A stretch of DNA of 64,000 nt from Kiritimatiellia bacterium. GTDB lineage: Bacteria; Verrucomicrobiota; Kiritimatiellia; RFP12; UBA1067. The number at the start of each line of letters is the position of its first letter. Position 1 is the first letter of the stretch. Of the stretch, positions 4,773 through 48,059 are shown piece by piece. The DNA lies in the NCBI GenBank assembly GCA_045536845.1, contig JAZSOG010000011.1, positions 34,172-98,171 of the forward strand. The letters are read 5' to 3'. Under the pieces are notes generated by a model. It saw only the letters and a list, made by a program, of their open reading frames with translations, did no database searches and was not told the DNA's origin. The translations under genes were made by a program, and so were the position numbers.

Positions 4773-5978
4773 CTAGTACAAGAACCCGAAGAGCCACAAG
4801 GGGATTCTGCATCCCCGCCCTACTTCGATGCCGTCCAATGCGAGATAGCTGTCCGGCAAGTCCTTGATCTGCTCGAACGTTTTTCTTTCCCCTCCTATTT
4901 CGAAAAGATGTCGTCCGTCGACAATGCTGTCACCGCGCGAAGGGAAGGCTGTCGTATTGCGAACCGAAAGCTGGTTGTTGAAAAACACTTCGCGGAGCGT
5001 TCCCTTGTCTGGATCGGGCGTAAGCGCGCACATCAAGTTTGTGTTGTCGCAAAAGAGCTTGCTCGGCGAACAAAGGCGCTTCAAGGCATCGGCGTCTTCC
5101 GCCAACATTCCGACTAATCCTGCCCGGCGGAGTGCATGCAAGACCTTGAGCCCCTGCTTGCGATCCATTTCAAGGCCCTGGCACAACTTGGAATTGTTCG
5201 GCGTCTGAGGGGTTGATTCTGCAAGTATCGTCAGCATCCTCCTCGCTTTGCGAATGGTTTCCGGCGTGACGTCCTCGACCTTTGGCAAATCGACATCCAG
5301 AACCTGGTTCACCACCTGAAGAAGTTTTCGATGGAAATGCCGAAGGTCCTCGCGATAGAACGGATAGTAACCATGCTCAAGATACTGTTCGAACTTTGGC
5401 ACGACTTTTACAGTTGAGACAACCGCCTCTGCAATGGACACATGATTTTTCAGGATGTCGCCCAGTTTCTGAACTGGGAATCTACCACACCCCTCAAACT
5501 CCAGAAATTCCCTGAAGGACATTCCGGCAAGTGAATATTCCACCTGGCGGCGCGAAAGATCCGCTTTCCCTTGCGCGAGGCGCAGAATCGAAGATCCCGT
5601 ATAGGCAATCTTCAAGGTCTTGAAATTGTCATACAAGGTCTTGATCAGATTCTGCCAATCTGCGAGATAGTGTATTTCGTCGATGTAGATGCTTTCACCG
5701 CCGTGTCTTACATGATGCTGGGCTAGTTCGTATAACTCCTGAGCGTTCAGCCACACGTTGTCAACGGAAACATAGAGTGCTGAATCCGATTCATCTCGAT
5801 TCTCTCTCAAATGCTGAAGAAGCATCGTCGTCTTTCCAACTCCGCGAGGGCCGTCAAGGGCGACCACCCTTGAATCCCAATCAATCTCATCAAAAAGATA
5901 GCGATGAAACGATGTTTCGGTCTCGCGAATGCGATCAGCGGACATGTCATAAATCATTTGAACGCTCTCTTCAGTCAT
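4773..5978 (-). CDS. AAA ATPase, DUF4143-type (orphan ATP-binding protein)
   Basis: Walker A GPRGVGKTTMLLQ and Walker B-like IYIDEIHY. The C-terminal part is typical of the DUF4143 family. Start moved from the track start (6083) to ATG 5978 (MTEESVQMIY), which is preceded by GGAGAG. Visibly lower GC than its neighbours. Confidence 0.8.
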   Translation of the reverse strand: MTEESVQMIYDMSADRIRETETSFHRYLFDEIDWDSRVVALDGPRGVGKTTMLLQHLRENRDESDSALYVSVDNVWLNAQELYELAQHHVRHGGESIYIDEIHYLADWQNLIKTLYDNFKTLKIAYTGSSILRLAQGKADLSRRQVEYSLAGMSFREFLEFEGCGRFPVQKLGDILKNHVSIAEAVVSTVKVVPKFEQYLEHGYYPFYREDLRHFHRKLLQVVNQVLDVDLPKVEDVTPETIRKARRMLTILAESTPQTPNNSKLCQGLEMDRKQGLKVLHALRRAGLVGMLAEDADALKRLCSPSKLFCDNTNLMCALTPDPDKGTLREVFFNNQLSVRNTTAFPSRGDSIVDGRHLFEIGGERKTFEQIKDLPDSYLALDGIEVGRGCRIPLWLFGFLY

Positions 5979-6005
5979 GGCATTGCTCTCCAATGTGTAG
6001 TTTGC

Positions 6006-6054
6006 AAACCACGTAATTTCGCAATTATCGTGGTTTTTAAACAACGATATTGTA
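6006..6054 (-). promoter_or_regulatory. candidate promoter (TGATACAAT, hexamer 6049..6054) and operator-like palindrome AAACCACG-N15-CGTGGTTT (6006..6036) in the ATPase leader
   Basis: Sequence inspection of the coding strand: GATATGATACAATATCG...AAACCACGATAATTGCGAAATTACGTGGTTT...GGAGAGCAATGCCATG. Confidence 0.4.
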
Positions 6055-6093
6055 TCATATCGCGCACAAGGGTGCAAGAGCACGTCTCAGGAG

Positions 6094-16792: not shown

Positions 16793-17995
16793 ATGAAAAA
16801 GCCAGCAGACATAAAGGACGTCTGGTTCATCCTCCCGGACGGGACGAATATCTTCGACTCTGAGTTCCGCGCGGGCGCGCTTTCAGTCGCACGCGAACTC
16901 GCCCTGCCAAAGGTGCGACTTTCCAACGAGACGCTCTTGCTGAAGAAGTTCAGCATCGAGAAAAGCGGCAAGAACAGCGCGATGGCAGTAATCGCACACG
17001 TCCGCAAACCCGCACTCCTAAAGGCGTTTGGAAAATCAGGCATACCGCTCGTCCTTCTCGGCGAGGAAGCGGTGGAGGACTGGCGCAAGGCCTTCGGAGG
17101 ACCCATCACCGTATGCTCGGTCGACAACGAGTCCATTGGCCAGATGGCAGCGGACTATCTCCACGAGCAAGGTCGTTTCGCGTCGTACATCTACGCAGAC
17201 GGATCGTCGGACCAGTTCTACCAATGGTGGACTTCGAGGCGTTACGAATCCTTCGTCGACACCTTGCGCGAGCACGGCTACACTGGCGAGGTCCTGCGCG
17301 TTCCAGTGCTGAACTCCTCGGCCCACACCGACGCCGAGCATTTCCTCAAGGCGATGGAGAAGATCCCGCGTCCAATCGCCGTATTCGCATGTAACGACCG
17401 CGCCGCGCGCGAGATCGTCTCATTCTGCCACTTGGCAAACCTCCACATCCCAGATGACGTAGCGGTTCTCGGCGTAGACGACGAGAAAGACCTCTGCGAA
17501 TCATGCCCCGTTCCGCTTTCGTCCATCAAGATCGAGCACTACCGCCTCGGGCGCACTGCGATGCACCTGATATTCAGGATGCTAGAGGGCGGCCCGCGTC
17601 GTGACAAGGTGATCCTGTGCCCGCCCGTGCGCGTAATAGAGCGCGCGTCAACGAAGAGAAGCACCCCGAGCGACAAGTTCGTCGCGAGCGCCGTCAACTT
17701 CATCCGCACCGCGCGCCTGGACACGCTCGACGTCATGGCAGTCGTAAAGGCGTGCGGCGCCTCGCGCAGCTATCTCGAGAAGCGCTTCAGAGCCGAGACG
17801 GGGCGGACGATTCTCGATGCCATTCACCGCCGCACCATGGAAGACGTGAAGCATCTACTTCTCGACACCGACAAGTCGGTTGCGGTCATAGCCCAGGAGA
17901 CGGGATTCCCGTCCGCCTCGGGTCTCTGCTCGATGTTCCGTCGTCTGACAGGACAGTCGACATCAGAATTTCGCGCCACCCGCCAACCGCGCTAA
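16793..17995 (+). CDS. XylR-like hybrid regulator (LacI-type periplasmic-binding-protein-like sensor domain + C-terminal AraC-family HTH)
   Basis: 400 aa. The central region VFACNDRAAREIVSFCHLANLHIPDDVAVLGVDD is typical of sugar-binding LacI/PBP folds. The C-terminal YLEKRFRAETGRTILDAIHRRTMEDVKHLLLDTDKSVAVIAQETGFPSASGLCSMFRRLTGQSTSEFR is an AraC HTH. Confidence 0.85.
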   Translation: MKKPADIKDVWFILPDGTNIFDSEFRAGALSVARELALPKVRLSNETLLLKKFSIEKSGKNSAMAVIAHVRKPALLKAFGKSGIPLVLLGEEAVEDWRKAFGGPITVCSVDNESIGQMAADYLHEQGRFASYIYADGSSDQFYQWWTSRRYESFVDTLREHGYTGEVLRVPVLNSSAHTDAEHFLKAMEKIPRPIAVFACNDRAAREIVSFCHLANLHIPDDVAVLGVDDEKDLCESCPVPLSSIKIEHYRLGRTAMHLIFRMLEGGPRRDKVILCPPVRVIERASTKRSTPSDKFVASAVNFIRTARLDTLDVMAVVKACGASRSYLEKRFRAETGRTILDAIHRRTMEDVKHLLLDTDKSVAVIAQETGFPSASGLCSMFRRLTGQSTSEFRATRQPR

Positions 17996-18000
17996 TAATA

Positions 18001-18128
18001 TATAGGCAGTGGCCGAAGGATCCTCCTCATGGACCCTCGGCGAATACGCCGTATCCATTCGCTCGGACCTTCGCTCCACTGCCTATGTCTATCGCATGCG
18101 CCCATAGCCTTCGGCCACCGGCTCTATA
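18001..18128. repeat. 128-nt inverted-repeat element filling the convergent xylR / response-regulator spacer
   Basis: Left arm TATAGGCAGTGGCCGAAGG (18001..18019) is the near reverse complement of 18068..18086 (CCTTCGCTCCACTGCCTAT) and of 18108..18128 (CCTTCGGCCACCGGCTCTATA). Confidence 0.5.
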
Positions 18129-18129
18129 A

Positions 18130-18756
18130 TTATGCGCGAGGCGGTATTAGACCGCGCTCCACGGCGCGATTCACCGCGTCTAAGCGGTCGCGGGCGCCAA
18201 GCTTGGCGAAGACGCTGGAAAGGCGAACCTTCACCGTTATCTCGCTGACCTCGAGCGCCTCGGCAATCTCACGGTTTTGCTTCCCTTCGGAAACGAGGCG
18301 CAGGGTGTCGATCTCCTTGTCGGAAAATGTGGGCGAGGCGGCACGACGCTCGTAGATGACGCGCACGGGCTCGGGGACATAGCGGTCTCCGCCTGCGACG
18401 GTGCGTATCGCGGCGACGATGTCGTCGGCCGCCTCGGTCTTGAGGACATACCCCTTCGCGCCGATCTCAAGCGAACGATAGATGTCTTCGTCGGTCCCGC
18501 TCGTAGTGAGCATCACCACTTTTGCCTTGGGGTTTGCGGCAAGAATCTCTTCAAGCGCCGCGATTCCGTCGGTTTCCGGCATCCTTATGTCGAGAATCGT
18601 GACATCGGGCTTTACGCGCGCGACGAAATCCGCGGCGCCTGCGCCGCTGTCGTGTTCGCCGACGAAGTCAAGGTCCTTGAAGAGCCTCACTGTGAACTTG
18701 AGGCCCATCCTGACAACCGAGTGGTCGTCTATCACCGCGACACGTATGCGCTTCAT
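18130..18756 (-). CDS. response regulator, NarL/FixJ (LuxR-type HTH) family
   Basis: MKRIRVAVIDDHSVVRMGLKF receiver domain with ...DVTILDIRMPETDG. C-terminal LuxR HTH KEIDTLRLVSEGKQNREIAEALEVSEITVKVRLSSVFAKLG. The ATG at 18756 overlaps the kinase stop (ATGA). Confidence 0.9.
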   Translation of the reverse strand: MKRIRVAVIDDHSVVRMGLKFTVRLFKDLDFVGEHDSGAGAADFVARVKPDVTILDIRMPETDGIAALEEILAANPKAKVVMLTTSGTDEDIYRSLEIGAKGYVLKTEAADDIVAAIRTVAGGDRYVPEPVRVIYERRAASPTFSDKEIDTLRLVSEGKQNREIAEALEVSEITVKVRLSSVFAKLGARDRLDAVNRAVERGLIPPRA

Positions 18757-20541
18757 TTCCGCTCCTCCAAGATTACACAACGCCATTCCCCGTCGTCACG
18801 GAACGACACGGAGAACCCGCTTCGCATTCCGCGCTCGCGCATTCCCTCGAGTCCGAAATGCCCGGGACCGCCGGCGCTCGCCACAGGGTCGAAGGCACGG
18901 CCGTCGTTCTCGATCGACACGCGAAAACCGCCGTTTTCGCCCTTCCCGCAGGTGATACGCACGTTCGCCGCCTTGCCGTGGCGGACGGCGTTCGTGACGG
19001 CCTCCTGCACGACCGCCATTACATCGCCCTTCACCTCTGTCGCGATGCCGCCCGAAAGCGGCTCGAGGCGAGACTCCATTGCAACGGCGCGCGACGCGGA
19101 GATGCGGCGGGCGTAGAGAGCGAGTATCTCGTCGAGGCGCATCGTCAGTATCTCGTCGTTGCGGAGATTGTGGATCGCGTTGCTGACTTCGATGCGCGAA
19201 AGGTCGAGCATCTCGCAGGCGGCCGTAAGCGCCTCCTTCTGCTCGGGCGGCAGCGAAGACTCGACGGCGACGACGTTGCGCAGGAGAAGCTGGGTTCCCG
19301 CGATATACTGCGAAATGCTGTCGTGAAGTTCCGCGGCGATGCGGCGGCGCTCGTCTGCGACCGCGAGGTCCCTAATGCGCTTGCGACGGCGCTCGAGAAG
19401 GAGCCAGAAGAATGCGACAAGGAGCGGCACGGACGTGACGATCGCGGCTGTGCGGAAAAACGCCGTCGCCCCGGCGACCCATCTGTTCCACCCCGGAAGC
19501 AGGTGGATCAACTCGTCGCCTATCGCCTCAAGCACTGGGGCAAGCTCGATTCCCGACGAGCTGACATACGGCATCATCACGCCGTCAATGTATACCATCT
19601 CGCCTGCAAATTGTTGAATGGCCTCTTCGCTAAGGCCGTGGACGCGCAGGGGCCCCTCGTCCGTCTCGAGGACAAGCTCCGGCATCTTGTGTTCGAACGC
19701 CGCAATCATCTTGAGCTCGCCGACGATTCCCTCAAACCGCACACGGGTATTGGACTTCTTGCCGTCGACGACATCGCGAAGCCGCGTCAGTGGGGGCGGC
19801 GGAAGTTCCGCCTGACCGATCTTCGTGATGCGCGCGGCGGTGACGCCCTGACGCACGATGAGGGGGTCTACGTAGCCGATCACTTCGACAATGTCCCCGA
19901 CGCGCAGCCGATCGTAGCCGACGCGCACGGACTTCGGCACTTCGGGCATCGCGCCCGACATGTACATTCCGATCCCGTTGGGGTCGCGTTCGTCCACAAG
20001 GACCGCCGTGTCGTTGATGAAGGCGTGTGCAAACGCAACGACGCCGGTCACGACGCAGGGCGGCTTGAAGCGTATTGCGACGCGGTCTACCGACATGATC
20101 TCCGCGATGGTCGTCGGCCGCGGCTTGACCTTGAGCTCTACAAGGTCACCCGCCGTAGGAAGGAAGGAAGGAATCCTCGTCGACCGTTTCGACAACAAGC
20201 TCGTTCTCGCCAACGCGCATGAACGGCGTGATGTCGCAAATGTAGGGCGGGGACGACAAGGTACAGACGCTCTTGTCGTTCAGCACTACCTCGAACGAAC
20301 CGCCGGCGCCGGCGAAGTTGATGCCGTACCTCGTGCCGGGGCGGTTGTGCATTTCGAACTTCGCGGACATGGAATGCGCCGTGCCAGCCTCGGCTTCGGG
20401 GTCGCCCGAGGCGAACACAATCGGCCGTGCGTAACGGCTGTTTGGGTATTTCGGCTCTATCTCAAGCGGATCAGTCAGAGCCACCGCAAAAACGGTGGCC
20501 ACGGGAAAGAGCAATGCAAGAATCGCCGCGCCGAGCTTCAT
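18753..20541 (-). pseudogene. sensor histidine kinase (HisKA_3 + HATPase_c, NarX/DesK type) interrupted by a +1-unit frameshift at a (TTCC)4 tract
   Basis: The 5' ORF (20541..20146) supplies a signal/TM1 (MKLGAAILALLFPVATVFAVAL) and the start of a periplasmic domain. The 3' ORF (20213..18753, only a TTG start) supplies the rest of that domain, TM2, ERRRIAAELHDSISQ (HisKA_3) and the ATPase domain. The two frames overlap at the repeat. Removing 4 nt gives one 594-codon ORF (1786-4 = 1782 nt). Confidence 0.8.
20157..20173. repeat. tetranucleotide tract (GGAA)4 on plus = (TTCC)4 on the coding strand
   Basis: Plus strand gtAGGAAGGAAGGAAGGAAtcc read directly. It sits exactly in the overlap of the two kinase ORFs. 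Confidence 0.95.
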
Positions 20542-20547
20542 GTGGGT

Positions 20548-20556
20548 ATTTTACCA
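20548..20556 (-). promoter_or_regulatory. extended -10 TGGTAAAAT placed 6 nt upstream of the kinase ATG (leaderless-type promoter)
   Basis: Coding strand TTTAATATGGTAAAATACCCACATG. No Shine-Dalgarno sequence between the -10 box and the ATG. Confidence 0.45.
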
Positions 20557-20584
20557 TATTAAAGCGGCGAATTCACACAGAGAT

Positions 20585-21193
20585 TCAAATCACATTAAGC
20601 GAGCGTATGCAGGGTATGAGAGTGTTTGCGAGAACTTCGGAGTTCAGCTGGTGCCCGCCCGGGAAGGACTGTGCCATGCCGGGGTAGTGTTGCTCGAAGG
20701 CCTCCCTCGACTCCGGGCCGACGAGCGTGTCGGCGTCCCCGAATAGTCCGTGGCAGAGCATGCGGTCGTCGTCGTCGATGCCGTCGAACTGGCGCGATTC
20801 AAGCTCCTGGAAATGGGCAATCGTCTCCTTAGTGACGTGGAACTCAGTCTCGCCGTCCTTGCGCTTGTTTAGCCACTTGTGCTTGCCGACGTAGAGAATG
20901 TCGTACTTCTTGGATGTCCAGAACGACGGATTTACGCAGATGCGCGTAAAACCGTGGAGCATCTGTGCGTACATCCCGCCCATCGATGTGCCTATGACGA
21001 GATCTGGCATCTCGTCGTAGGCAAGCGCCTCGAGCGTCTTCTCGGCGACAAGCGGATCAAGCGGAATGTCCGGCGCTACCACGACTGCGCGATGCGCCGG
21101 TTCCGCCCGCTCCCAGAACCACTTCCGCAACAGCTCAACGGTCCCGCTCGCGCCCGACGACGCAAATCCATGTAAGTACAGTATCTTCTTCAT
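20585..21193 (-). CDS. alpha/beta-fold esterase, YqiA-like (UPF0227)
   Basis: MKKILYLHGFASSGASGTVELL... with nucleophile elbow GTSMGG. Start set at ATG 21193, since the upstream track extension is Arg-rich and overlaps a gene relic. Confidence 0.75.
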   Translation of the reverse strand: MKKILYLHGFASSGASGTVELLRKWFWERAEPAHRAVVVAPDIPLDPLVAEKTLEALAYDEMPDLVIGTSMGGMYAQMLHGFTRICVNPSFWTSKKYDILYVGKHKWLNKRKDGETEFHVTKETIAHFQELESRQFDGIDDDDRMLCHGLFGDADTLVGPESREAFEQHYPGMAQSFPGGHQLNSEVLANTLIPCIRSLNVI

Positions 21194-21305: not shown

Positions 21306-24263
21306 CTATCGGATTATAATTGCAAGGCCCATGCTCCCTACGCGGAACTTGAGGGCCGTTACTATAGGCGACTCGCCAGACGAGTCCGTTACAAGTTTAA
21401 ATTCGTATGGGCGATCGCCTTTTGTCAAATGGCCGTCTTTCTCGACAAGCACAACGCGGCTCGCAAGATTCTCCTCGGTAAGGTTTGTTATGCCCTTCTC
21501 CGCGGCAAGCAGCGAGACCCACGCGCAGTTCTTGCATTCCGTAGCGTCGACCGTGATCGGCGGCATTCCCGCTGCAAGGTGAATCTTGTTCGTCGCCGAA
21601 ACGATGTCCGCATTTTCAAAACCATTTTCAGGAACGACGAACTTCACGACCGCGTTCGTGAGGCAGTTGAGAGTTCCGAGCCGCATAGACGCCGTCGCGC
21701 CGGAAATAGTGAGGTAGTCGTTTCGGCGGTCATAGTCTCCGCCACCGACATTAAGCGTTCCGCCAACAGCCACAGAGCCACCGTCGACGTTCATACGTGT
21801 CGACCCGGACGTTCCGTATGACGAGGCCGTCATATTTACGCATCCCAGCGTGGCGTTGCCTGTTACGTCAAACAAGGCATTCTCTCCGGAAACGTCGATC
21901 TTGTACAAGCCCTTGAACTGCGTGTGCCGCGGAGAGACGAATCCCGCCGCCTTGAAGGTAGAGTTGGAGACGAGAAGCGTGCCGGCAGTCGTGCTATTGT
22001 CGCCATCGCAACCGAGATAGAATGCCGCGCCGGACGCATCGAAGGTCGAACCATTCAGGACATTCAGTGTGCCTTCGCCCTTGCCGCCCACACCCGTCGA
22101 ACTTGCCCAGTGCTGGCGGAAGCAGGCACCGTTCCTGATCGTCAGCGTACCCTGCTTGGCATTGTTGCCAACAGCCAGATTGGCCCTGTTGGTAACGGTC
22201 GACGAATCGACTATCATCGTGCCGGTGTAGGAGACCGTAAGCCCGTTGGTGATTGTAAGCACAGACCCCAATTTGACATTGACGCTGTTGTTCGCGCCTG
22301 AATCGTTCCCCGTGGCGGTCGAAAGCGATCCGTTGATTGTCATCTCGGTGCCGTTGATCTCAAACCTGTTCCAGCTCGTACGGGCACTCCATTCCGGAGC
22401 AACATTGCCGTTCACCGTTACGACGCCGCCTGTTGTCGCAAAGACGCCACTGTTGCAATTCATGATATTCTTGTCGCCAAAAGAAATGGAGCCAATTGTC
22501 ATCGAGGACGCGCCACGCAGGTCGACGGTAGCCTGTCCGTTCTTGACAGCGAGCGACTTTACGACGGCGTCCGTGTCTTCGAGGTAGAGCGACGCCATCG
22601 TGGTGACGTTGGAAATCGCCGCAGAAATGACGTCGTTCGGCGGCACGCCCAGCGACCAGTTCGCGCCGTCCGTCCAATCGCCGGACGCCGTTGTCTTGAG
22701 AAAGTCAAGCGCAACGGGCTTTACGCTACCGCTCGGCGTTTCGGTCGTATATGTGTTGTTGTTATACTCGAACGTCGAAACGAACTTGAAGAGATAGGTC
22801 TTGCCCCACGCAGCCGCGGAGTTGGTGGCGACAAGCGTATCTCCCGCCTGCACGTTCTGCCACGTTCCGATCGCAGTCATGTTCTCCGCCGTCTCGCCGC
22901 TCCAGCACGTGACCGTTGTTGCGCCGATGCCAGTCTCCACGACGCCAACGGACGCCCAGACGCCGCCTTCGGACGGCCGCCCGCCCGTCGTCACGTCCCC
23001 AAAGACGACGTCGCCCTTAGTCTTGAAAGAATCAACCGGACTCGTCGCTGAATCGACACCCGAAGCCGCGACCGTCCACTGGTAGTAATACGTCGTCATC
23101 GGATCAAGTCCCGAAAGCGTCGCCGTCACGGTGTCCGCCGCGCTGATCGCCGCAAGCGTGTTGGTGTGGGCAAGCGCATCCGCCGTCGTGCCCCAGGCGA
23201 CGGACGGCGTCGCGGACGCAACGCCATTGAGGACGATGGAGGCAGATAGGTCGGCAGAGGAATCCGCTATAGTGGAAACTTCCGACGAGAGAATGAGCAC
23301 CCCACTGGCAGACGGTTCCGTATAGATTGTGTTATTGCAAACCTCGGCAAGCGTTGTCGCAATCTTGAACTGGTCAATCGCCACCTCTTTATTGCCCGTC
23401 TGGTATTGCCCACCAAAGGCGATGTAGGAGACAGGCGTACCGCCACTGACGATATTCGCCTCGACGTTCTTGACATTCCAGTCCCAAGCCATGTTGTATG
23501 CCGTGGAAGCGATCGGCTGGGCGGCCATGTCCACTAGATCCTTACCGTTCGCCCCCATCCCGATCCTGACGCGGGCAACAAACATGAAAGTTGACCAAGT
23601 GCTAAGAGTGGAATCGGACGTGGTGTACGGGAGAACATAGTCCGTCGATCCAACGCGACCAAAGAGCGATATTGCCGAGCCGACTTTCTTATAGCCCATC
23701 CAGATGCCATCCGTAGTAAGACTTTGCATGGCGTCCGACCCTCCGCTGAAGGTGTTCTGCACAAGCCCGCCGGCCCAGTAGCCGCCAGACTGAAGGGCGC
23801 TAGTATAATCGGAAGCGTTTGCGTTAAGCTTCATGAGAAAGCGATAGTAGATCGTCCCGGTCGTGGGCAACGTGGCCGAGAACTTACGGTAGATGCCACG
23901 TCCTTTCGCCTCTTTGCCATCGTTTAGCATAATCACTTTGCCAGTGTCGTTCGTTTCTGTATTGTCATATGCGGCGTCAAGTGTTAGCGACCCAGCGGTC
24001 GATTTTGGGACGGCAGTGCCACCAGCCCAGAGATCGCTAGAAGAAAAACCTATATTCTTCCCAGTAGGATTAGCGTCTCTCAACATGGTTGCCGTGGCCA
24101 GGGTGTAGTCAGAGGCATGAAACCCCTCAGAGACTAGGACATCGGCACTTGCCGTGAACACAGCAAGAGTGCAAAGCAAGACTGCGGCAATAAGCGCAAA
24201 GAATGTCCTAAACACCCCGCCAATCGGGATCACAGCGTTTTTCATAACTAACCGAACCTCCAT
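21306..24263 (-). CDS. large secreted LamG-like / beta-helix surface protein, C-terminal tail ...GSMGLAIIIR
   Basis: 985 aa with a signal/anchor FFALIAAVLLCTLAVFTASA. N-terminal domain DVLVSEGFHASDY...TGTIYYRFLMKL is homologous to EVLVYEGF..SGSIYFRFLMQV of the 1795-aa protein. An alternative start at ATG 24245 (MKNAVIP) lies 11 nt after GGAGG. Confidence 0.8.
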   Translation of the reverse strand: MEVRLVMKNAVIPIGGVFRTFFALIAAVLLCTLAVFTASADVLVSEGFHASDYTLATATMLRDANPTGKNIGFSSSDLWAGGTAVPKSTAGSLTLDAAYDNTETNDTGKVIMLNDGKEAKGRGIYRKFSATLPTTGTIYYRFLMKLNANASDYTSALQSGGYWAGGLVQNTFSGGSDAMQSLTTDGIWMGYKKVGSAISLFGRVGSTDYVLPYTTSDSTLSTWSTFMFVARVRIGMGANGKDLVDMAAQPIASTAYNMAWDWNVKNVEANIVSGGTPVSYIAFGGQYQTGNKEVAIDQFKIATTLAEVCNNTIYTEPSASGVLILSSEVSTIADSSADLSASIVLNGVASATPSVAWGTTADALAHTNTLAAISAADTVTATLSGLDPMTTYYYQWTVAASGVDSATSPVDSFKTKGDVVFGDVTTGGRPSEGGVWASVGVVETGIGATTVTCWSGETAENMTAIGTWQNVQAGDTLVATNSAAAWGKTYLFKFVSTFEYNNNTYTTETPSGSVKPVALDFLKTTASGDWTDGANWSLGVPPNDVISAAISNVTTMASLYLEDTDAVVKSLAVKNGQATVDLRGASSMTIGSISFGDKNIMNCNSGVFATTGGVVTVNGNVAPEWSARTSWNRFEINGTEMTINGSLSTATGNDSGANNSVNVKLGSVLTITNGLTVSYTGTMIVDSSTVTNRANLAVGNNAKQGTLTIRNGACFRQHWASSTGVGGKGEGTLNVLNGSTFDASGAAFYLGCDGDNSTTAGTLLVSNSTFKAAGFVSPRHTQFKGLYKIDVSGENALFDVTGNATLGCVNMTASSYGTSGSTRMNVDGGSVAVGGTLNVGGGDYDRRNDYLTISGATASMRLGTLNCLTNAVVKFVVPENGFENADIVSATNKIHLAAGMPPITVDATECKNCAWVSLLAAEKGITNLTEENLASRVVLVEKDGHLTKGDRPYEFKLVTDSSGESPIVTALKFRVGSMGLAIIIR

Positions 24264-24281
24264 CTTTTAAGAGTTGGCAAT

Positions 24282-24310
24282 ATTGTACAAAAATCCATGC
24301 AAAACGGCAA
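24282..24310 (-). promoter_or_regulatory. sigma70-type promoter of the 985-aa gene: TTGCCG (24305..24310), 17 nt, TG-extended TACAAT (24282..24287)
   Basis: Coding strand TTGCCGTTTTGCATGGATTTTTGTACAAT read directly. Confidence 0.5.
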
Positions 24311-24340
24311 TACCTGAAGGCAAATAGAGACCATTTTGTG

Positions 24341-24490
24341 TCAGCGGCGATAGTACCTGACCCAGTCGATCTTCATCTCCATCGGGAACTTCGCGGCGGG
24401 GATGACCTTGCCGAGCAACTCGGTCGGCAGAGCGAGACCGAAATTCGTGCCGTAGACCTTCGGCATGCTTCCGTTCATATGCCCGCAGCC
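24341..24490 (-). pseudogene. gene relic (..MNGSMPKVYGTNFGLALPTELLGKVIPAAKFPMEMKIDWVRYYRR*)
   Basis: The 3' part repeats the relic at 21190..21276. Bases 24438..24486 are about 88% identical to 36422..36470 inside the 1341-aa gene (GSQPKVYGTNFGLSLP). No plausible start or SD, and shorter than any full-length homolog. Confidence 0.5.
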
Positions 24491-24524
24491 CGCGCTTAGC
24501 ACGGGAATGTAAATGAGGATGGCT

Positions 24525-25811
24525 TTAGGGCTTAAGGCAACCTATGGGACAGATCAGGGTCCCATCAGTGTCCTCATACGCATAATCCCCCTCTGCGACG
24601 ACTATCATCATAAAAGAAGGAGCGGGCATCTTTTTAGTGTCTATCTCGTTCGCGAGTTCATGGAGCCTCCGCTGCCCTTCTGCTATAAGCGCAGACCCGC
24701 CGATCTTGACTTCTATGAGTCCATATCTGCCGTTGCGAAGGTGCATCACGGCGTCGCACTCAAGTCCGCTCTTGTCACGATAATGGCTGATCTTTCCGTC
24801 ATTCGCGGCCGCGTATGTCCGTAGATCTCGCGCAACCATGGTCTCGAAGAACAGACCAAATGTCTTAAGGTCGTTCATCAGGTCGCCAGGCCCCAGCCCC
24901 AGAGAGGCTGTGGCGATGGATGGGTCGGTGAAATAGCGCGTATCGGTGGTGCGGACCGGGGTTTTGCACCTGAGATTGGGACACCATGCCGGCATGTCCT
25001 CGACTACAAATATCTTCTTCAGCGCCCCGATGTACGAGTAGATGGTGTTCTCGTGCGCACCTCCAGCGGCTGCATTTGGAGACAAATCGGCCTTTATAGC
25101 GCTGATAGCCGACTGCGTACCCTGAAGCCTGGCAAGGGATTTCATTATCCGAAGCGCAAGCTCTGAATCACGCAAAACGTCGTCTACTCTGGATATGTCC
25201 GTATTGATGATCGCGTCAACATAGTCGAATGCCTGACGAAGCGCCGCTCTTCCGGACTTGCATGTCGCCTTTGGCCAACCGCCTCGGCATGTCAGATACG
25301 CCACCTCCTCCAGTGTATGCGGCATCGCATCACCAAGCGACCTTTTGCCTGAAAACAACTCAGCAAACGAAACACTCCCAGAAGACTCCAGGCTTTCGAA
25401 CAATGACATAGGCCGCATCTTCACCCATGCAAAGCGCCCCGTCCCAGAATGGTGGATCTTCTTTTTCTCTTCATCGTCAAGAGGCACCGCGCTTCCTGTA
25501 AGAATATACTTGCCGTCTGCATCTGAATGATCAACATCAAACCGTATTGTATCCCAAAGTTCAGGTGCCGTCTGCCATTCGTCAATCAGACGCGGATTAT
25601 CTCCTTCTAGCAGACGCTGCGGATTCGTCTGCGCCGTCATGAAATACTGGTCGCGCAGCTTGGGATTGTTCAGGTATATTACGCTCTTTGCTATCTGCTC
25701 CGCAGTAGTCGTCTTTCCGCACCACTTTGCGCCCTCGATTAGAACGGCCCCCTTAGCATCTAAAGCGTCGCGCAAAATGCTGTCAAAAACCCTATTCTTG
25801 TAGTTTTTCAT
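24525..25811 (-). CDS. AAA ATPase, DUF4143-type (orphan ATP-binding protein)
   Basis: MKNYKNRVFDSILRDALDAKGAVLIEGAKWCGKTTTAEQ (Walker A) and ..ILTGSA.. The C-terminal EVKIGGSALIAEGQ restriction-endonuclease-like tail is typical of the family. Lower GC. Confidence 0.85.
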   Translation of the reverse strand: MKNYKNRVFDSILRDALDAKGAVLIEGAKWCGKTTTAEQIAKSVIYLNNPKLRDQYFMTAQTNPQRLLEGDNPRLIDEWQTAPELWDTIRFDVDHSDADGKYILTGSAVPLDDEEKKKIHHSGTGRFAWVKMRPMSLFESLESSGSVSFAELFSGKRSLGDAMPHTLEEVAYLTCRGGWPKATCKSGRAALRQAFDYVDAIINTDISRVDDVLRDSELALRIMKSLARLQGTQSAISAIKADLSPNAAAGGAHENTIYSYIGALKKIFVVEDMPAWCPNLRCKTPVRTTDTRYFTDPSIATASLGLGPGDLMNDLKTFGLFFETMVARDLRTYAAANDGKISHYRDKSGLECDAVMHLRNGRYGLIEVKIGGSALIAEGQRRLHELANEIDTKKMPAPSFMMIVVAEGDYAYEDTDGTLICPIGCLKP

Positions 25812-27090: not shown

Positions 27091-30000
27091 TTAGCGGACT
27101 AGGATTACGGTGCCGATGCCGAGGACGCGGAGCGTGCCGCCTGCGCCGTCGGCGGTGTCGATAAATTCGGCGAGGCCTACCGCTTCAAGTTGTGCGGCGG
27201 CGTATGTGCCGGGCGCGAGCTTCGTGTCCCCGATCTTCGCCGACTTGACCGTGAGCGTCTTGCCATTAAGGTCGAGAACAGATCCGGATGACACCTGTAC
27301 GCTACGAAGCCTCAGCTCATCAAAGAACTTGACACGTCCGCAGTCACCGACGACTAGCGCCGCCTTCTTGAAATCGGCAGCGGAATCGGGGGATACTCCG
27401 CCTTTCGTGACTCCAGCGGGAATCGGCGTGTAGGTGTTCGTGTTGAGTGCGTTTTTGTCGTTGCGTACATAGATCGTGCCGCCCTTCTCGCCGTCGCTCT
27501 TCCCCTGAAGGTAGACTGTGCCGGCCGAAGAGCTCTTGTCCGAACTTGCGTTGTCCTTGACGACCGTCGCGCCGCGCGCGAAGAAGTTCGTCTCTGCGCC
27601 TCCGGCGAAGCCCCCGTTCGTAAGCCGCACCGCGATGCGGCCACCGCCGCCGCTGCCGATGCTTCCAGAGGCAGAATCGGCCTTGAATGTGCCGGTCCCT
27701 GAAAGCGTACCGGCTGTGAGAACAATCGAGCCGCCCGACGCGCCGGCGCCCGAAGCGGAACTGCCGTTCGCCGTCACAGTGCCGTTGTTCACGAACGCGC
27801 CGCTCACGTTGAGCAGCAGGAGACCTCCGCCCGGCGCACTCGTCGCCTGGTCGTCCTTAGCGGTGCCGTAACCGGGCAGGCGCGGGGCAAAGACCGAGTC
27901 GAATGCCTTGTTGCCCGATGCCCCGGCAGACTGGCCGCCATGGAAGGAAACGGTGTCCCGGTTGATGTTCATGTCCGGACCGCCGCCGTTCGCGTAGAGG
28001 TAGCCGCCCGATTCGACCGTCAGGTTCCCGTTCACCGTGATGTCGCACTTGGTGAGGTCACTGAAATCCGTCTTGCCCTGGAACTGCAGGCATCCAATCG
28101 CGCCGCCACTATGAACGACCACGTCGCCGTCGAAGGTGTAGGGAGCATTTGCCTGGAAAATCCAGTTGCTCGCGAATTCGTAGGGCGCAGAGCCCCAGTT
28201 GATCGTGCCGCCGTCGTAGCGGATACCGCCCTGGCGGGTCGAGGACGCCGAAACAGACATGGGGCCGTTGGGGAGGTTGAGCGTCGTTCCCGCCGGCACG
28301 GCGAGCATGCCGTAGCCGCTGATGACGATCGCGTCAAATGTCCAGGTCTCGCCCGGCGGGATCGCCGTGATCGCCTGCGGGGCGTGCCACCGCGCGCCGT
28401 AGGACTTGTTGCGCTGGTCGTCCAGGTAGAGCGTGCCGTTCGGCTTCGCGGGGTCGGCCGTCTTTACGTAGAACGTTCCGCCGCCGCCGCCTGACCCGCC
28501 CGCGTTGATGCCGTTGATCTTCACGTTCGCGACGGGGAAGCCGAGCGTCGTCGCCTCCGTGAGCTCGATCGCTACGCGGCCACCGGAACCACGGCTGCCG
28601 TTGTAGTAGGAGTTCGCCGAAAAGTTCGCGAGAATGCTGCCCGATCCCGAGCAGCTCTTCGCCTTGACATAGGCCGAGCCGCACGCCGTGTTGGAACCGT
28701 CGAACTGACGGCCTCGGACGTTGATCGTGCCGTTCAGCGTCGTCGCGCCGCCGACCTCCAGCCAGACAGCGCCGCCGCCCGACTTGTTGTCCGTTGCGGA
28801 ACCGGCACTCGAGCTTCCAGCGCCTAGATCCGCCGGCCTGTAGACGTTGCCGTAGACCTTACCGAAGCCGTCGTAGCTCGCGGCATGCGCCGAGGCAGCG
28901 CTGCCCGCCGGGAACTTCTGCGCCCAGTAGCCCTTCTTCTCCGCGTCAATCTTGCAGCCAGATGCCAGCGTGAAGTCGCCTCCGACGACTGCCTTGAGAT
29001 GGTACTTCTGTCCGTCGTTCGCGCCGTTGATCTTGTGCGTCCAGTTGCCACCGAGAATCTCGACATCGCCCGACACATTCAGCGCCGGGAAGGTGGCGTC
29101 GTATGTCGTGTCGATCTGGACGGTTCCCGTGTAGTCCGCCGTCTGCGTCCACGAGGCGACCGTTGCAGATGCAGCAGCATCCCATTCGCAGTTCGCCTTC
29201 GAGAATCGGCCGTCGAAGAGAATGTTGTCGGACGCGGCAGGCGCGACGCCCTTGGACCAGTTGGAGCCTTCCGACGCGAGGCCGTCCGACGTGGCGACCC
29301 ACGTGTTGTAGCCAGCGGGCGCGACGAGGTTCACGACCGTGAGCTCGGCGGAGCCGGCCTGCGCGTCGATGCCGTAGAGCCCAGCGGCAAGCGTGACTGT
29401 CACGGTCGTGTCGGATGTCGTCTGAGCATCAATAAGCGGCACTACCTCGACATCCACCGAAGAAGAACCTGCTGGAATCGTCGCCATGCCAGAGAGCGTC
29501 ACGAATGTCTGTCCCTCCATGGCGGTTCCATCGACAGTGTAGGAGACCGTGAGATCATGCGCCGTGTCGGATCGCGAGATGCGGAACACGCCGGGAACAA
29601 GTCCGTACTCGTTGGCATCGGATATCTTCTCGATCGAAATGTCGCCGTTGTAGAAGACGCCGCCCTTCGCGACGACCTCGGTGCCGTTGGCGTTCTTCCC
29701 GTAGGCCGCAAAATTGTACGTAGTGTTCGCCGACAGATTCGCGGGCGTGTCCATGTAGGTACCGGGATTGGCGGCGGTGGCGAGGATATTCGTGATGGCC
29801 GTCTCGCCCGCGTCATAGATCACGCCAACATCTCCGCTGTTCTCACTCAGGACGACCGTGACCGTGTAGGTGCCGTTCGCGTTGCGGACGGCAGTCGGCG
29901 TCTGGAACTTCTGCGCCGTGGCGTCGACACTCTCGATCTCTCCCATGCCGAAGAACGCCGCATCGGACATCGTCGCGTATTCGAGCGCGACCTCGGCCGC

Positions 30001-32478
30001 GCTCGCCGCGCCCTTGCGCAGGCGCGCCTCGTCGACGGCGCCGACAAAGTAGGCCTCGCTGCCGTCCGAATCGCAGCCGATCGAGAGCGGATAGCCGTTT
30101 TCCGTGGCTTCCCGGATCGACCCCGTGCCGATCTGGGCCCCGTCGAGGAAGGCCGTCAGCGTGCTGCCGCGGTAGACGAACGCGAAGCGCATCCAGCCGG
30201 ACGAGACGATGTCGGAGAAGCTCGCCGAGATGGCGGTTTCCGAGGAGCCGCGGGCCGAAAGCTTGTTGTTCGCGTTCGCCAGCTCGACCTCCCAGCCGCC
30301 GCCGTCGTTGTATTCACGCTTCCGGGAGACGAGCCGGTCGTAGCCCTTCCGCGCCGTGGCGTCGTAGAAGCAGGAGAAAGTGAAGTTGCCGCCGAGGCCA
30401 AGGGAATTGTAGTTCGGGATCGTCAGGTAGTCCTTCACATCAGACGTGGCAGTCTGGCGCGCCGTGCCGACGGCACCTGCGGCCTGCGCGACCGAAACGG
30501 CGGACGACTTCGCGGGCGACGCGCCGAGGCCGTTGCCCGTCGCGTCCGCCACGGTGCCGGACGCCTCATTCATGTGCCAGACGCCAGCATAGTTCGTCCA
30601 AACGGCGGTCGGGTCGTTGTCGACGTTCGCCGCGCCGCCGAAGTACACCGTCAGTTCTGTTGCAGACGAAAGCGATGGCACCTTGACCCAGACGAGCGTC
30701 TCGCCCGCAGGATCGAAGGTGTCAACCTCGAACGGAAGCGAGGCGTCATTCTCGTCCGTGAAGAAGAGGTCCGTACCGTTTGCGCTTTGGTGGAGTAGCG
30801 CCGAGGCTTCGACGGGCAGACGCACAAGTACGGGGAAGTCCGCCCACGCCGTCTCGCCGATCTTCGCGAGCGCCGTCGCGGATGGCGTCAGCGTCATTTT
30901 CTTCGCGAAGTCCGTCTTTGAGACGGCGACCCGGTTGTGGAGAACCAGATTGGTCGAGGCTGTGGACGGCAGCTCGTAGTTTCCGGCGAGGAGCGTAACG
31001 GTGATCGTCACGTCCTCGTCGACTGTCACATCGTCCAGCGGCATGACCGGAAGAACCGCGCTAGCTGCGTTGGCGGGAATCGTGACGGCGACAGGCACCT
31101 CCCAAGTCGTTCCTTCCGTGCCCGCGCTGCCGGAAATCGTATAGTTCACCGTGAGCGGGAGCGAATCGTCATTGACGCGCGAAACCGTGACGCCACCCGC
31201 GACGAGGCCCTTCTCGTTCGCATCTGTTGTCGCGCCGAGAGACAGCACGCCCGTGTAGAGCGTCCCGGCGTCGGCTTCGACCGTTCCGTTCTCGTTCGTC
31301 GCGAGAACGGAGATCTCGTATGTCGTGTCCACCGCAAGGCCGGAGACGGTCCAGTTGGCCATGCCGCCATCGGCCACGGACTGCCAGCCGTTCGTCGTCG
31401 CGGAGGCGCCGTCGTCCGCAATCCAGGCCAGGTCGGCCGCGTTCGCGTCCTCGGTCGCCGAGAGCGCGTAGGTTGCCGCGCCAGTGCGAGACATGGCGAC
31501 GGTGCCAAGCGCCGGCACGAGGCGGGAGGCATGGGCGTAGGCTTCGTCTTCATCGGTCGTCACAAGAAATTCGTCGAAGGTGATATACTGGCTGTTGACC
31601 TTGTAGTGGCCGAGCATCTGAAGGTAGGAGGGCTTAGCCGATCCGCTAACGAGCGCAATGCCGTTCGTCGTGAACGTCCACTCGAAGTCGGTTGTCAGGG
31701 TGTTGGTCGGAGCGGCGTAGAACGAGAGGGTGTCGTTGCCGTTTTCGCCTATGTCGATTTTCGCGATGCAGGCGCATCGAAGTGTCTTCGACGTGTCGAT
31801 GGTGAAGAGAGGTTTCGTGAAGGTCGCGCCGTCCGCGGGGTTCTTGACATAGGCGGCAACCTCCAGCGTCCCGTTGCGGTTGCGGACGCCCATGTAGATG
31901 CCGTTCGCGATGTTGCATTGGTCGCCCGTCGTCGGCTTTTCGATCGCCTCGGTGCCGAGGCCGGCGATCCAGTAGTTCCATTCGCCGAGGTAGGACGTGC
32001 TTAGGGCGGCTTTGGGAACCTGCATCAGGAATCGAAAGTAGATGGAGCCGGACGTCGGCCACGTGCAGGTAAGCTTCCGCTGCTGGGCGCGGTTGTCGCG
32101 GGTGGCACTGGTCGCCGTGGTGTTGTAGAGGACAGCGCGCAAATCCTTTGTTCCGTGGACAGTTCCATCCTTCCAAATGTCGGGAAGCTGGAGTCCGTCG
32201 GGTTGTGCAACAAAGACGCCCGTTCCGGAATTCCAGCCATTCACCTTGTCGAGACCGATCGAGTCGATGCCGGACTTCTTTCCGTTGAGGGACGAGGCTG
32301 TGTAGTCGGACGTGGCCGTGTAGTCGGCCGAGCTGAAGCCCTCGTAGACAAGAACCTCCGCGCGCGCTTCCGGCGCGGAGAGCGCAAACGCGAGAAGAGC
32401 CGCTACAAGCGGGAACATTCCGCGCGCGAGACGCGATTTAAGAATCGAACCGGAACCTTCGGTATGTTTCATTGCCAT
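27091..32478 (-). CDS. giant secreted surface protein (1795 aa): LamG-like N-domain, FN3-like + Calx-beta modules (x2), DUF2341 + LamG, long G-rich parallel beta-helix, C-terminal tail ...GIGTVILVR
   Basis: Calx-beta-type blocks VSRVNDDSLPLTVNYTISGSAGTEGTTWEV..VTITVTLLAGNYE and ISRSDTAHDLTVSYTVDGTAMEGQTF... DUF2341-like DENDASLPFEVDTFDPAGETLVWVKVP. LamG-like VWHMNEASGTVADATGNG...AVDEARL. Conserved signal peptide MAMKHTEGSGSILKSRLARGMFPLVAALLAFALSAPEARA. Confidence 0.85.
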   Translation of the reverse strand: MAMKHTEGSGSILKSRLARGMFPLVAALLAFALSAPEARAEVLVYEGFSSADYTATSDYTASSLNGKKSGIDSIGLDKVNGWNSGTGVFVAQPDGLQLPDIWKDGTVHGTKDLRAVLYNTTATSATRDNRAQQRKLTCTWPTSGSIYFRFLMQVPKAALSTSYLGEWNYWIAGLGTEAIEKPTTGDQCNIANGIYMGVRNRNGTLEVAAYVKNPADGATFTKPLFTIDTSKTLRCACIAKIDIGENGNDTLSFYAAPTNTLTTDFEWTFTTNGIALVSGSAKPSYLQMLGHYKVNSQYITFDEFLVTTDEDEAYAHASRLVPALGTVAMSRTGAATYALSATEDANAADLAWIADDGASATTNGWQSVADGGMANWTVSGLAVDTTYEISVLATNENGTVEADAGTLYTGVLSLGATTDANEKGLVAGGVTVSRVNDDSLPLTVNYTISGSAGTEGTTWEVPVAVTIPANAASAVLPVMPLDDVTVDEDVTITVTLLAGNYELPSTASTNLVLHNRVAVSKTDFAKKMTLTPSATALAKIGETAWADFPVLVRLPVEASALLHQSANGTDLFFTDENDASLPFEVDTFDPAGETLVWVKVPSLSSATELTVYFGGAANVDNDPTAVWTNYAGVWHMNEASGTVADATGNGLGASPAKSSAVSVAQAAGAVGTARQTATSDVKDYLTIPNYNSLGLGGNFTFSCFYDATARKGYDRLVSRKREYNDGGGWEVELANANNKLSARGSSETAISASFSDIVSSGWMRFAFVYRGSTLTAFLDGAQIGTGSIREATENGYPLSIGCDSDGSEAYFVGAVDEARLRKGAASAAEVALEYATMSDAAFFGMGEIESVDATAQKFQTPTAVRNANGTYTVTVVLSENSGDVGVIYDAGETAITNILATAANPGTYMDTPANLSANTTYNFAAYGKNANGTEVVAKGGVFYNGDISIEKISDANEYGLVPGVFRISRSDTAHDLTVSYTVDGTAMEGQTFVTLSGMATIPAGSSSVDVEVVPLIDAQTTSDTTVTVTLAAGLYGIDAQAGSAELTVVNLVAPAGYNTWVATSDGLASEGSNWSKGVAPAASDNILFDGRFSKANCEWDAAASATVASWTQTADYTGTVQIDTTYDATFPALNVSGDVEILGGNWTHKINGANDGQKYHLKAVVGGDFTLASGCKIDAEKKGYWAQKFPAGSAASAHAASYDGFGKVYGNVYRPADLGAGSSSAGSATDNKSGGGAVWLEVGGATTLNGTINVRGRQFDGSNTACGSAYVKAKSCSGSGSILANFSANSYYNGSRGSGGRVAIELTEATTLGFPVANVKINGINAGGSGGGGGTFYVKTADPAKPNGTLYLDDQRNKSYGARWHAPQAITAIPPGETWTFDAIVISGYGMLAVPAGTTLNLPNGPMSVSASSTRQGGIRYDGGTINWGSAPYEFASNWIFQANAPYTFDGDVVVHSGGAIGCLQFQGKTDFSDLTKCDITVNGNLTVESGGYLYANGGGPDMNINRDTVSFHGGQSAGASGNKAFDSVFAPRLPGYGTAKDDQATSAPGGGLLLLNVSGAFVNNGTVTANGSSASGAGASGGSIVLTAGTLSGTGTFKADSASGSIGSGGGGRIAVRLTNGGFAGGAETNFFARGATVVKDNASSDKSSSAGTVYLQGKSDGEKGGTIYVRNDKNALNTNTYTPIPAGVTKGGVSPDSAADFKKAALVVGDCGRVKFFDELRLRSVQVSSGSVLDLNGKTLTVKSAKIGDTKLAPGTYAAAQLEAVGLAEFIDTADGAGGTLRVLGIGTVILVR

Positions 32479-32607
32479 CCCCCTTGATGCATCGTTTCGT
32501 TTCTAGCGACATTCTACCGTCTCGGGAAAACATCGCCAATGCCCTGAACCATCGTTCGGCGACATTCTAACAAAACGAGGCAGGGATATGAATATACGAA
32601 AGTATAG
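32479..32607 (-). promoter_or_regulatory. conserved promoter/leader cassette, copy A: palindrome 32592..32607; P1 -10 TAGAAT 32564..32569; P2 TTGGCG (32534..32539), 17 nt, TAGAAT (32511..32516); SD AAGGGGGA
   Basis: About 90% identical over ~130 nt to 36714..36842 and 45370..45498. Confidence 0.6.
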
Positions 32608-32611
32608 GCGG

Positions 32612-32671
32612 GGCTGAAAAGTTGAAAGGCGGACAGCCTTCGGCTGGGGGATACGCATCTCCGAAGCGGAG
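32612..32671 (-). terminator. two short GC hairpins plus a T-rich tail after the 1341-aa gene
   Basis: Minus strand CTCCGCTTCGGAG (32659..32671) and CAGCCGAAGGCTG (32634..32646) followed by TCCGCCTTTCAACTTTTCAG. Confidence 0.45.
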
Positions 32672-36713: not shown

Positions 36714-36842
36714 CCCCCTTAATACATCGTTTCGCTTCTGACGACATTCTACCACTTCGGGTAAATATCGTCAATGCTATGAACCATCGTTCGGCGACAT
36801 TCTAACAAAACGAGGCAGGGATAGGAATATACGAAAGTATAT
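36714..36842 (-). promoter_or_regulatory. conserved promoter/leader cassette, copy B: palindrome ATATAC-GAAA-GTATAT 36827..36842; P1 TGTTAGAAT (hexamer 36799..36804); P2 TTGACG (36769..36774), 17 nt, TAGAAT (36746..36751)
   Basis: Read directly and aligned by eye with copies A and C. Confidence 0.6.
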
Positions 36843-36897
36843 GTAGGGTTTGGGAAGTTAGAAATTGAAAGTTGAGGCACGTTTGCCACCTTACCGG

Positions 36898-45369: not shown

Positions 45370-45500
45370 TCCCCTTAGTGCATCGTTTCGCTTCTGGCGA
45401 TATTATACCACTTCGGACAAATATCGTCAATGACCTGAACCATCGTCAGATGACATTCTAACAAAACGAGGCAGGGATAGGAATATACAAAAGTATATTC
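45370..45500 (-). promoter_or_regulatory. conserved promoter/leader cassette, copy C: palindrome GAATATAC-AAAA-GTATATTC 45481..45500; P1 TAGAAT 45455..45460; P2 TTGACG (45425..45430), 17 nt, TATAAT (45402..45407)
   Basis: Read directly. The distal palindrome arm overlaps the stop codon of the upstream beta-helix gene (45499..45501). Confidence 0.6.
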
Positions 45501-47988: not shown

Positions 47989-48059
47989 ATTATACCAAAA
48001 CCGCGCGACGGCAATCTATACAATAGTATAGAGACTGCGATGCACCTCTTTGATATAAT
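47989..48059. promoter_or_regulatory. bidirectional promoter region: central palindrome TCTATAC-AATA-GTATAGA (48015..48032) flanked by TGGTATAAT (hexamer 47989..47994, minus) and TATAAT (48054..48059, plus)
   Basis: Read directly. Spacing from the 6-bp arms to the -10 hexamers is 21 nt on the minus side and 22 nt on the plus side. Confidence 0.6.

Follow-up and report, generated by a model that had tools for sequence, protein, structure and literature searches.

Tetranucleotide repeats in the 5′ part of open reading frames (ORFs), for which one frame in three is ON, are known from the contingency loci of Haemophilus influenzae and Neisseria (mod AGTC, the lic genes). The tracts there have at least five and mostly at least 15 units, exceed the length expected from composition and differ from strain to strain, and each genome has many such loci (De Bolle et al. 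2000, as cited in PMC4235727 and PMC6321876). Screens of phasomes take tracts of at least five tetranucleotide units (PMC6321876). Tetranucleotide tracts of 2–4 units have been classed as “proto-mutable” (1e-9 to 1e-7 per division) and those of 3–12 units as “mutable” (1e-7 to 1e-5); according to this classification, tracts of both classes reflect the composition of the genome, selection for mutability playing no part (PMC4235727). Expansions of short tracts are favoured over contractions (PMC4235727; bioRxiv 10.1101/2025.07.08.663602), and in Staphylococcus aureus loss-of-function alleles at short simple repeats (SSRs), which are homopolymers, recur convergently across thousands of genomes (bioRxiv 10.1101/2025.07.08.663602). 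The C6/C7 tract in bvgS of Bordetella pertussis is a short SSR that gives true phase variation at low frequency, although genome sequences show no variation in it (Stibitz et al. 1989, as described in PMC1891110).

The 64-kb stretch of DNA analysed here (hereafter the window) contains a two-component sensor kinase gene that is broken at a TTCC tract. As at the Haemophilus and Neisseria loci, the unit is a tetranucleotide in the 5′ part of an ORF, but the tract has 3–4 units in the window and its relatives, occurs at chance frequency, is invariant among relatives and stands alone in 64 kb. The likeness to bvgS is that a short coding repeat in a two-component sensor kinase gains a unit, which truncates the kinase and would silence its regulon, and that the ON tract is short and non-polymorphic; the bvgS tract, however, is a homopolymer for which reversible switching has been shown in culture, whereas the window presents a tetranucleotide and a single OFF allele. 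With proto-mutable and mutable short SSRs (PMC4235727) the locus shares a coding repeat born of codon usage, in which an occasional frameshift null allele appears that is revertible in principle. It departs from the homopolymeric, recurrent alleles of S. aureus in its TTCC unit and in the lack of recurrence among related loci. We argue below that the window probably carries a fresh null allele of a conserved sensor kinase, produced by a single slipped-strand duplication, and not an evolved switch.

A sensor kinase reading frame is broken at a TTCC tract

An ORF on the minus strand of the window (20541..20146) starts with ATG at 20541, encodes 131 aa and ends in ...GAC GAG GAT TCC TTC CTT CCT TCC TAC GGC GGG TGA... 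The C-terminal residues SYGG* of this product are out of frame, and its stop lies 9 nt past a perfect (TTCC)4 tract (20158..20173, minus strand; (GGAA)4 on the plus strand), itself embedded in a 17-nt period-4 run (20157–20173). The lesion leaves a 5′ fragment of the kinase gene (20146..20541, minus strand; 131 codons plus stop), which encodes a signal/TM1 helix and a GH2_N-like beta-sandwich, and a 3′ part in the +1 frame (18753..20157, minus strand), which encodes OB-like periplasmic domains in tandem, TM2, HisKA_3 and HATPase_c and is undamaged except for its frame. The downstream ORF (20213..18753, minus strand; 486 aa) is in a different frame from the upstream one, and its earliest start is a TTG. 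An earlier note on this DNA had described the gene as split exactly at the (TTCC)4 tract, with the upstream stop 9 nt beyond it and a TTG-started remainder in another frame, and each of these readings was confirmed.

The tract codes for Ser-Phe-Leu-Pro (residues 125–128), directly past the last strand of the beta-sandwich, and the (TTCC)3 run exists only because these residues happen to be encoded TCC TTC CTT CCT. With the fourth unit the kinase frame shifts at codon 129 and reaches a stop at codon 132. Editing the tract in silico produced a single ORF of 594 codons with three units and of 598 codons with six, whereas two, four, five or seven units led to truncation at codon 131–135; the earlier note’s assignment of 3 or 6 units to ON and 4 or 5 to OFF is thus correct as arithmetic of the frame, and the tract is a non-triplet repeat within an ORF that toggles its frame. 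The two kinase frames are open together only from 20279 to 20146, so that any frame-restoring change is confined to these 134 nt, inside which the tract lies.

Simple repeats are otherwise scarce in this DNA. The TTCC tract is the sole tetranucleotide tract of at least three units in the 64 kb, and no other simple repeat or microsatellite, nor any homopolymer of at least 8 nt, was found in the window. Markov-1 simulations gave an expectation per 64 kb of 1.4 ± 1.2 tetranucleotide tracts of at least 12 nt (one was observed) and of 0.01 tracts of at least 16 nt, which means that the four-unit tract is no chance word, while its three-unit precursor occurs at the chance level. Tetranucleotide tracts in 146 kb of related loci were likewise at chance level only.

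The broken gene belongs to a HisKA_3/NarL-type two-component system

The repaired 594-aa protein matched the Pfam families HisKA_3 (1.5e-08) and HATPase_c (3.3e-06), both above their gathering scores, and His405, within the ELHDS motif of the HisKA_3 domain, was unchanged in 13 homologues. Residues 20–119 showed a sub-threshold match to the GH2 N-terminal sugar-binding domain. AlphaFold models of the kinase, built on shallow alignments (mean pLDDT 71 and 76), consisted of an N-terminal helix, a beta-sandwich, two OB-like barrels, a long transmembrane/signalling helix and a DesK-like catalytic core. Foldseek matches to the whole kinase were dominated by the kinase core, with DesK as the top structural matches, while the separately modelled periplasmic part retrieved GH2 N-terminal domains and the tandem OB folds of Teb1. 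Since these periplasmic matches were low-TM and covered single domains only, we put forward carbohydrate sensing by this part of the kinase just as a suggestion.

The kinase stop and the start codon of the next gene, which encodes a NarL/LuxR-type response regulator (18130..18756, minus strand; REC plus GerE HTH, 208 aa), share the sequence ATGA, an overlap that the earlier note had pointed out and that both the sequence and the regulator’s domains (Response_reg at 4e-23, GerE at 3e-14) bear out. The regulator has a Shine-Dalgarno sequence of its own, GGAGGAG, 8 nt upstream. A phosphoacceptor His and HATPase_c in the kinase, together with a cognate REC plus GerE regulator in the same operon, are the hallmarks of HisKA_3/NarL-LuxR two-component systems; what the window lacks is the uninterrupted kinase frame. 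The pair resembles DesK/NarX-class kinases and their NarL/LuxR regulators in its HisKA_3 and HATPase_c domains, its structural matches to DesK and the translational coupling of the regulator, but differs from DesK/NarX sensors in a periplasmic part in which a GH2_N-like beta-sandwich is followed by OB-like barrels.

A putative extended −10 element, TGGTAAAAT (20548..20556, minus strand), was read by eye 6 nt upstream of the kinase ATG, which suggests that the operon transcript may be leaderless or carry a very short leader. A consensus sigma-70 scan of 17900–20700 returned no full −35/−10 promoter. Elements resembling a −10 also stand 6–8 nt upstream of the ATG at palindrome-containing promoters (described below) in the related loci L002, L004, L009 and L022, as at the kinase, and suggest that in relatives, too, the genes behind the palindrome have mRNAs with no leader or almost none. 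At the other end of the operon, the interval 18005–18125 between the regulator stop and a convergent AraC-type gene holds a long imperfect inverted repeat, GGTGGCCGAAGG...CCTTCGGCCAC. Its motif GAGGCGGTGGCCGAAGGCT is also present behind the regulator of L004 and of L006, and the sequence is possibly a conserved terminator or repeat element.

The tract has a constant length in related loci

Over its full length the repaired protein was 95–98% identical to intact 594-aa kinases. The 90% cluster to which these belong has 232 members, of which 40 were read, and those of its sources that have names are MAGs of rumen Kiritimatiellia/Lentisphaerae (among them the RUG series). The intact relatives all read ...DEDSFLPTAGDLVELK... 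over the junction. To these proteins we added nucleotide evidence from 25 related loci that cover the tract, eight of them retrieved by tblastn from genome and metagenome collections, 13 through intact proteins and four by exact match to the AraC-type protein encoded next door, a route unaffected by whether the kinase is intact. The 13 loci found through intact proteins bias the set toward ON alleles; the 12 others (tblastn and AraC-type neighbour) were sampled independently of the kinase frame.

The tract measured 12 nt in 25 of 25 loci, and no tract of two, four, five or six units occurred among them. It was a perfect (TTCC)3 in 14 loci, and in the remaining 11 it was interrupted (TTCCTTTCTTCC or TTCCTTCCTCCC) by the synonymous substitutions TTC>TTT or CTT>CTC, which keep SFLP. 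The peptide is therefore retained while the repeat is not maintained as DNA. Compared with these loci, in which the kinase frame is intact across the tract, the window gene has exactly one additional unit, and the presence of (TTCC)3 at this position in the closest relatives strongly supports an origin by slipped-strand mispairing, as the earlier note had proposed. That note had taken a four-unit tract fixed in all reads and related genomes, accompanied by additional disabling mutations, as the sign of a plain pseudogene; no related locus had four units, and the repaired window gene showed no second lesion.

Length variants were also sought at the protein level. The products predicted for tracts of two, four, five and six units on nine N-terminal haplotypes (19 in all) were looked up in a collection of 15 billion proteins, where only the window’s own 131-aa product was present, a single time, on an NCBI contig 103,897 bp long (P0077); the 18 slip variants predicted on other haplotypes were absent from this collection. 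Neither the 131-aa product nor the 208-aa regulator had an exact match in the contig index.

Near-identical kinase-regulator pairs were also seen in L013–L017 and L021–L023, with 87–94% nucleotide identity at the junction to the window and to L012/L024 and with different neighbourhoods, comprising GH16 plus an MFS transporter, a DUF2341/Laminin_G giant protein, an F5/8 type C giant protein or a beta-helix protein. The differing neighbourhoods imply that the pair is either multi-copy or located within a highly rearranging surface-protein/glycan-utilisation region.

The lesion is recent and is unlikely to be an assembly artefact

Against L024 the window is 98.4% identical over 6,752 nt, with the 4-nt unit as the only indel, and against L012 it is 97.8% identical over 6.4 kb, where the 4-nt unit is joined by one in-frame 3-nt indel in a different gene. 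The repaired gene differs from that of L012 by 15.5 synonymous and 5.5 non-synonymous changes (three amino-acid differences), a dN/dS of 0.11 that falls within the family range of 0.10–0.16 and points to purifying selection; the gene has no further stop or frameshift. Taken together, the low dN/dS, the lack of a second lesion and the fact that the unit is the sole indel against L024 indicate that the break is recent. A long-standing pseudogene was also considered and was rejected on the dN/dS of 0.11 and the absence of a second lesion.

The same comparisons bear on whether the fourth unit exists at all. A true (TTCC)3 and an intact kinase could have been obscured by a read error, by polishing or by the consensus of a mixed population, and this would explain why the four-unit allele is found on exactly one public contig and why every other near-identical-strain assembly examined has three units. 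Short tandem repeats are, on some platforms, more error-prone than unique sequence. Yet apart from the unit there is no other indel against the 98.4% relative over 6.7 kb and a single in-frame 3-nt difference from the 97.8% relative over 6.4 kb, so the assembly is not indel-prone; long ORFs also tile the window without other obvious splits (in a crude GC3-based tiling that missed some real genes), the clean gain of one entire unit is what biological slippage leaves behind, and short reads trivially span a 16-nt tract. We therefore regard an assembly or sequencing artefact as unlikely. Its more specific form, a noisy long-read assembly, was rejected, in that close relatives differ only by the 4-nt unit and one in-frame 3-nt indel.

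The locus has decayed independently in L006 (RUG673, ONVK01000065.1; L006:4001-4260, corresponding to window 20303–18349), where a deletion of ~1.95 kb joins codon ~80 of the kinase to codon ~136 of the regulator and a further 1-nt deletion lies near kinase codon 12. If L006 is no MAG artefact, the two-component system would appear to be dispensable and to have been lost outright in that lineage. With most of the kinase-regulator pair gone there, the system can on this evidence be lost, which fits pseudogenisation.

A full-length kinase could still be made from the window allele if the frameshift were read through by recoding, and the local sequence has one feature of this kind, in that a +1 shift at GGG before UGA-C enters the downstream frame exactly (GAC CTT GTA = DLV...), with SYGG replacing TAG in the product. 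It is also established that a stop codon in the A site stimulates +1 shifts, as in prfB. Re-pairing from GGG to GGU is poor, however, no properly spaced Shine-Dalgarno-like stimulator can be read at GGG-UGA-C, and the shifted arrangement is absent from the relatives examined, so that nothing here has been selected for recoding. The conserved site, slippery codon, in-frame stop and SD-like stimulator that together define a prfB-like +1 frameshift do not come together at this locus. Transcriptional slippage could in theory have the same effect but, to our knowledge, is a property of long homopolymers and not of four-unit tetranucleotides. With no orthologue sharing the shifted arrangement, programmed frameshifting and transcriptional slippage were both rejected, and rescue by recoding is extremely improbable.

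A palindromic promoter element accompanies giant surface-protein genes and the kinase-regulator pair

The earlier note had also linked the kinase, tentatively, to a regulon of giant surface proteins marked by a palindrome. The palindrome TATAC-N4-GTATA occurs at five sites in the window against 0.01 expected, and four of the five are upstream of giant secreted-protein genes. Besides the site at 2802–2815, these are 32593..32606, upstream of a 1795-aa surface-protein gene and with its centre at about −42 as placed from the extended −10; 36828..36841, upstream of a 1341-aa gene; 45484..45497, upstream of a 1303-aa gene; and 48017..48030, between a divergent 827-aa beta-helix gene and a 751-aa esterase/GH39 gene (no strand is assigned to these four sites). 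An extended −10, TTTGnTAnAAT, lies ~20 nt downstream of each palindrome, so that the palindrome is centred near −42.

In 10 related loci, the palindrome and its −10 lie 30–240 nt past the stop codon of the regulator and ahead of the next gene (L001:5542-5555, L002:6506-6519, L021:3934-3947, L022:4145-4158 and others). Because this adjacency is conserved in 10 loci, the regulator, the window’s sole representative of its type, is the leading candidate to bind the palindrome, as a candidate by association only. The proposed link between the kinase and a palindrome regulon thus gained a positional association, and stands at that strength.

Three of these genes have more in common than the palindrome. 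The 5′ ends and upstream regions of the 1795-, 1341- and 1303-aa genes are 75–85% identical over ~295 nt (32319–32613, 36554–36848 and 45210–45504) and their 3′ ends share repeats (27197–27288, 32848–32939 and 41576–41667); judged by these similarities, the three are a paralogous family with a common promoter module. Three AAA-ATPase genes (AAA_14/DUF4143, AAA_22/AAA_16) lie among the giant surface-protein genes (4773–6083, 24525–25811 and 36934–38118), and genes at 21306–25811 have a GC3 below that of their neighbours in a crude frame analysis.

Phase variation versus a fresh null allele

The earlier note had left the choice between a phase-variable switch and a fresh pseudogene, and had favoured the classical slipped-strand contingency mechanism. 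An evolved contingency locus would here be a selected, hypermutable TTCC switch, ON with three or six units and OFF with four or five, that toggles the kinase at high frequency and, through the regulator, the surface-protein regulon. Several features of the locus are of the kind expected from such a switch: the non-triplet repeat lies in the first 21% of the coding sequence, where changes in unit number toggle the frame as needed; the OFF allele is otherwise undamaged; SSR switching in a sensor kinase has a precedent in bvgS; and giant surface proteins are a typical target class, with the palindrome promoter beside the kinase-regulator pair in 10 relatives. What is missing is any indication that selection has formed the tract or that it serves as a switch. 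The number of units, four here and three in relatives, is below the cut-offs of at least five and far from hypermutable tetranucleotide tracts of more than ~10 units, and does not put the repeat above what composition leads one to expect, since tracts of at least three units occur at chance frequency and the 64 kb hold no further SSR. Tract length did not vary over the 25 related loci, in 11 of them synonymous substitutions interrupt the repeat, which speaks against secondary selection for mutability at the DNA level, and the 18 predicted slip variants on other haplotypes are missing from public proteins. An evolved switch is therefore unlikely, and the unit thresholds, the interrupted repeats and the absence of other SSRs in the window speak against the classical contingency locus. 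Of the two possibilities that had been left side by side, the fresh pseudogene is favoured by the lack of a second lesion and by the dN/dS of 0.11, whereas the switch is disfavoured by the absence of length variation in 25 loci.

A milder form of switching deserves separate mention. As bvgS varies in phase and yet is invariant between genomes, a lack of variation between genomes is compatible with low-frequency switching, and the same precedent makes the slippage mechanism put forward in the earlier note physically valid and the four-unit allele revertible in principle. The corresponding scenario would be a low-frequency, bvgS-like and reversible exchange between (TTCC)3 and (TTCC)4 that stochastically silences a carbohydrate-sensing kinase of rumen Kiritimatiellia and, via the NarL-type regulator acting at the class-II-like palindrome promoter, giant secreted/surface proteins. 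We consider this scenario improbable; if true, the switch would let the population hedge its bets, for instance against phage or factors of the host.

The reading that we prefer, a fresh null allele, can be set out as a sequence of steps. Replication would have slipped once, adding a unit to (TTCC)3 and shifting the frame at codon 129 of a periplasmic-sensing HisKA_3 (DesK/NarX-class) histidine kinase that is conserved in all other respects. Translation initiated at the native start would then end at codon 132 and yield a stub made up of the signal/TM1 helix and the GH2_N-like beta-sandwich, presumably secreted or membrane-anchored, while the kinase core would not be produced from that start. 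Loss of kinase function is inferred from this arrangement; in principle a C-terminal fragment could be initiated internally, but without a signal/TM1 helix of its own such a product would be mis-topologised. The regulator may still be made via its own GGAGGAG site and would then be without its partner kinase/phosphatase. Reversion by the loss of one unit would be expected at a low rate, in the order of 1e-9 to 1e-5 per division on the published classifications, and would in this be comparable to the bvgS C6/C7 tract. The null allele would be confined to one genome or population, and the tract would act as a mutational hot spot and not as a selected switch.

On this reading the lesion belongs to a familiar type of mutation and has its main practical meaning in annotation, in that the two ORFs are to be read as one frameshifted kinase pseudogene and the genome as a natural null mutant of its two-component system. 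It also illustrates that a frameshift associated with a repeat is in itself insufficient to infer phase variation, and that tract length, conservation of the repeat at the DNA level and polymorphism among relatives need to be checked. The adjacency of the palindrome to the kinase-regulator pair is possibly the more useful outcome, as it provides a testable hypothesis for the control of the giant surface-protein genes, for which the frameshifted strain would be a ready comparison.
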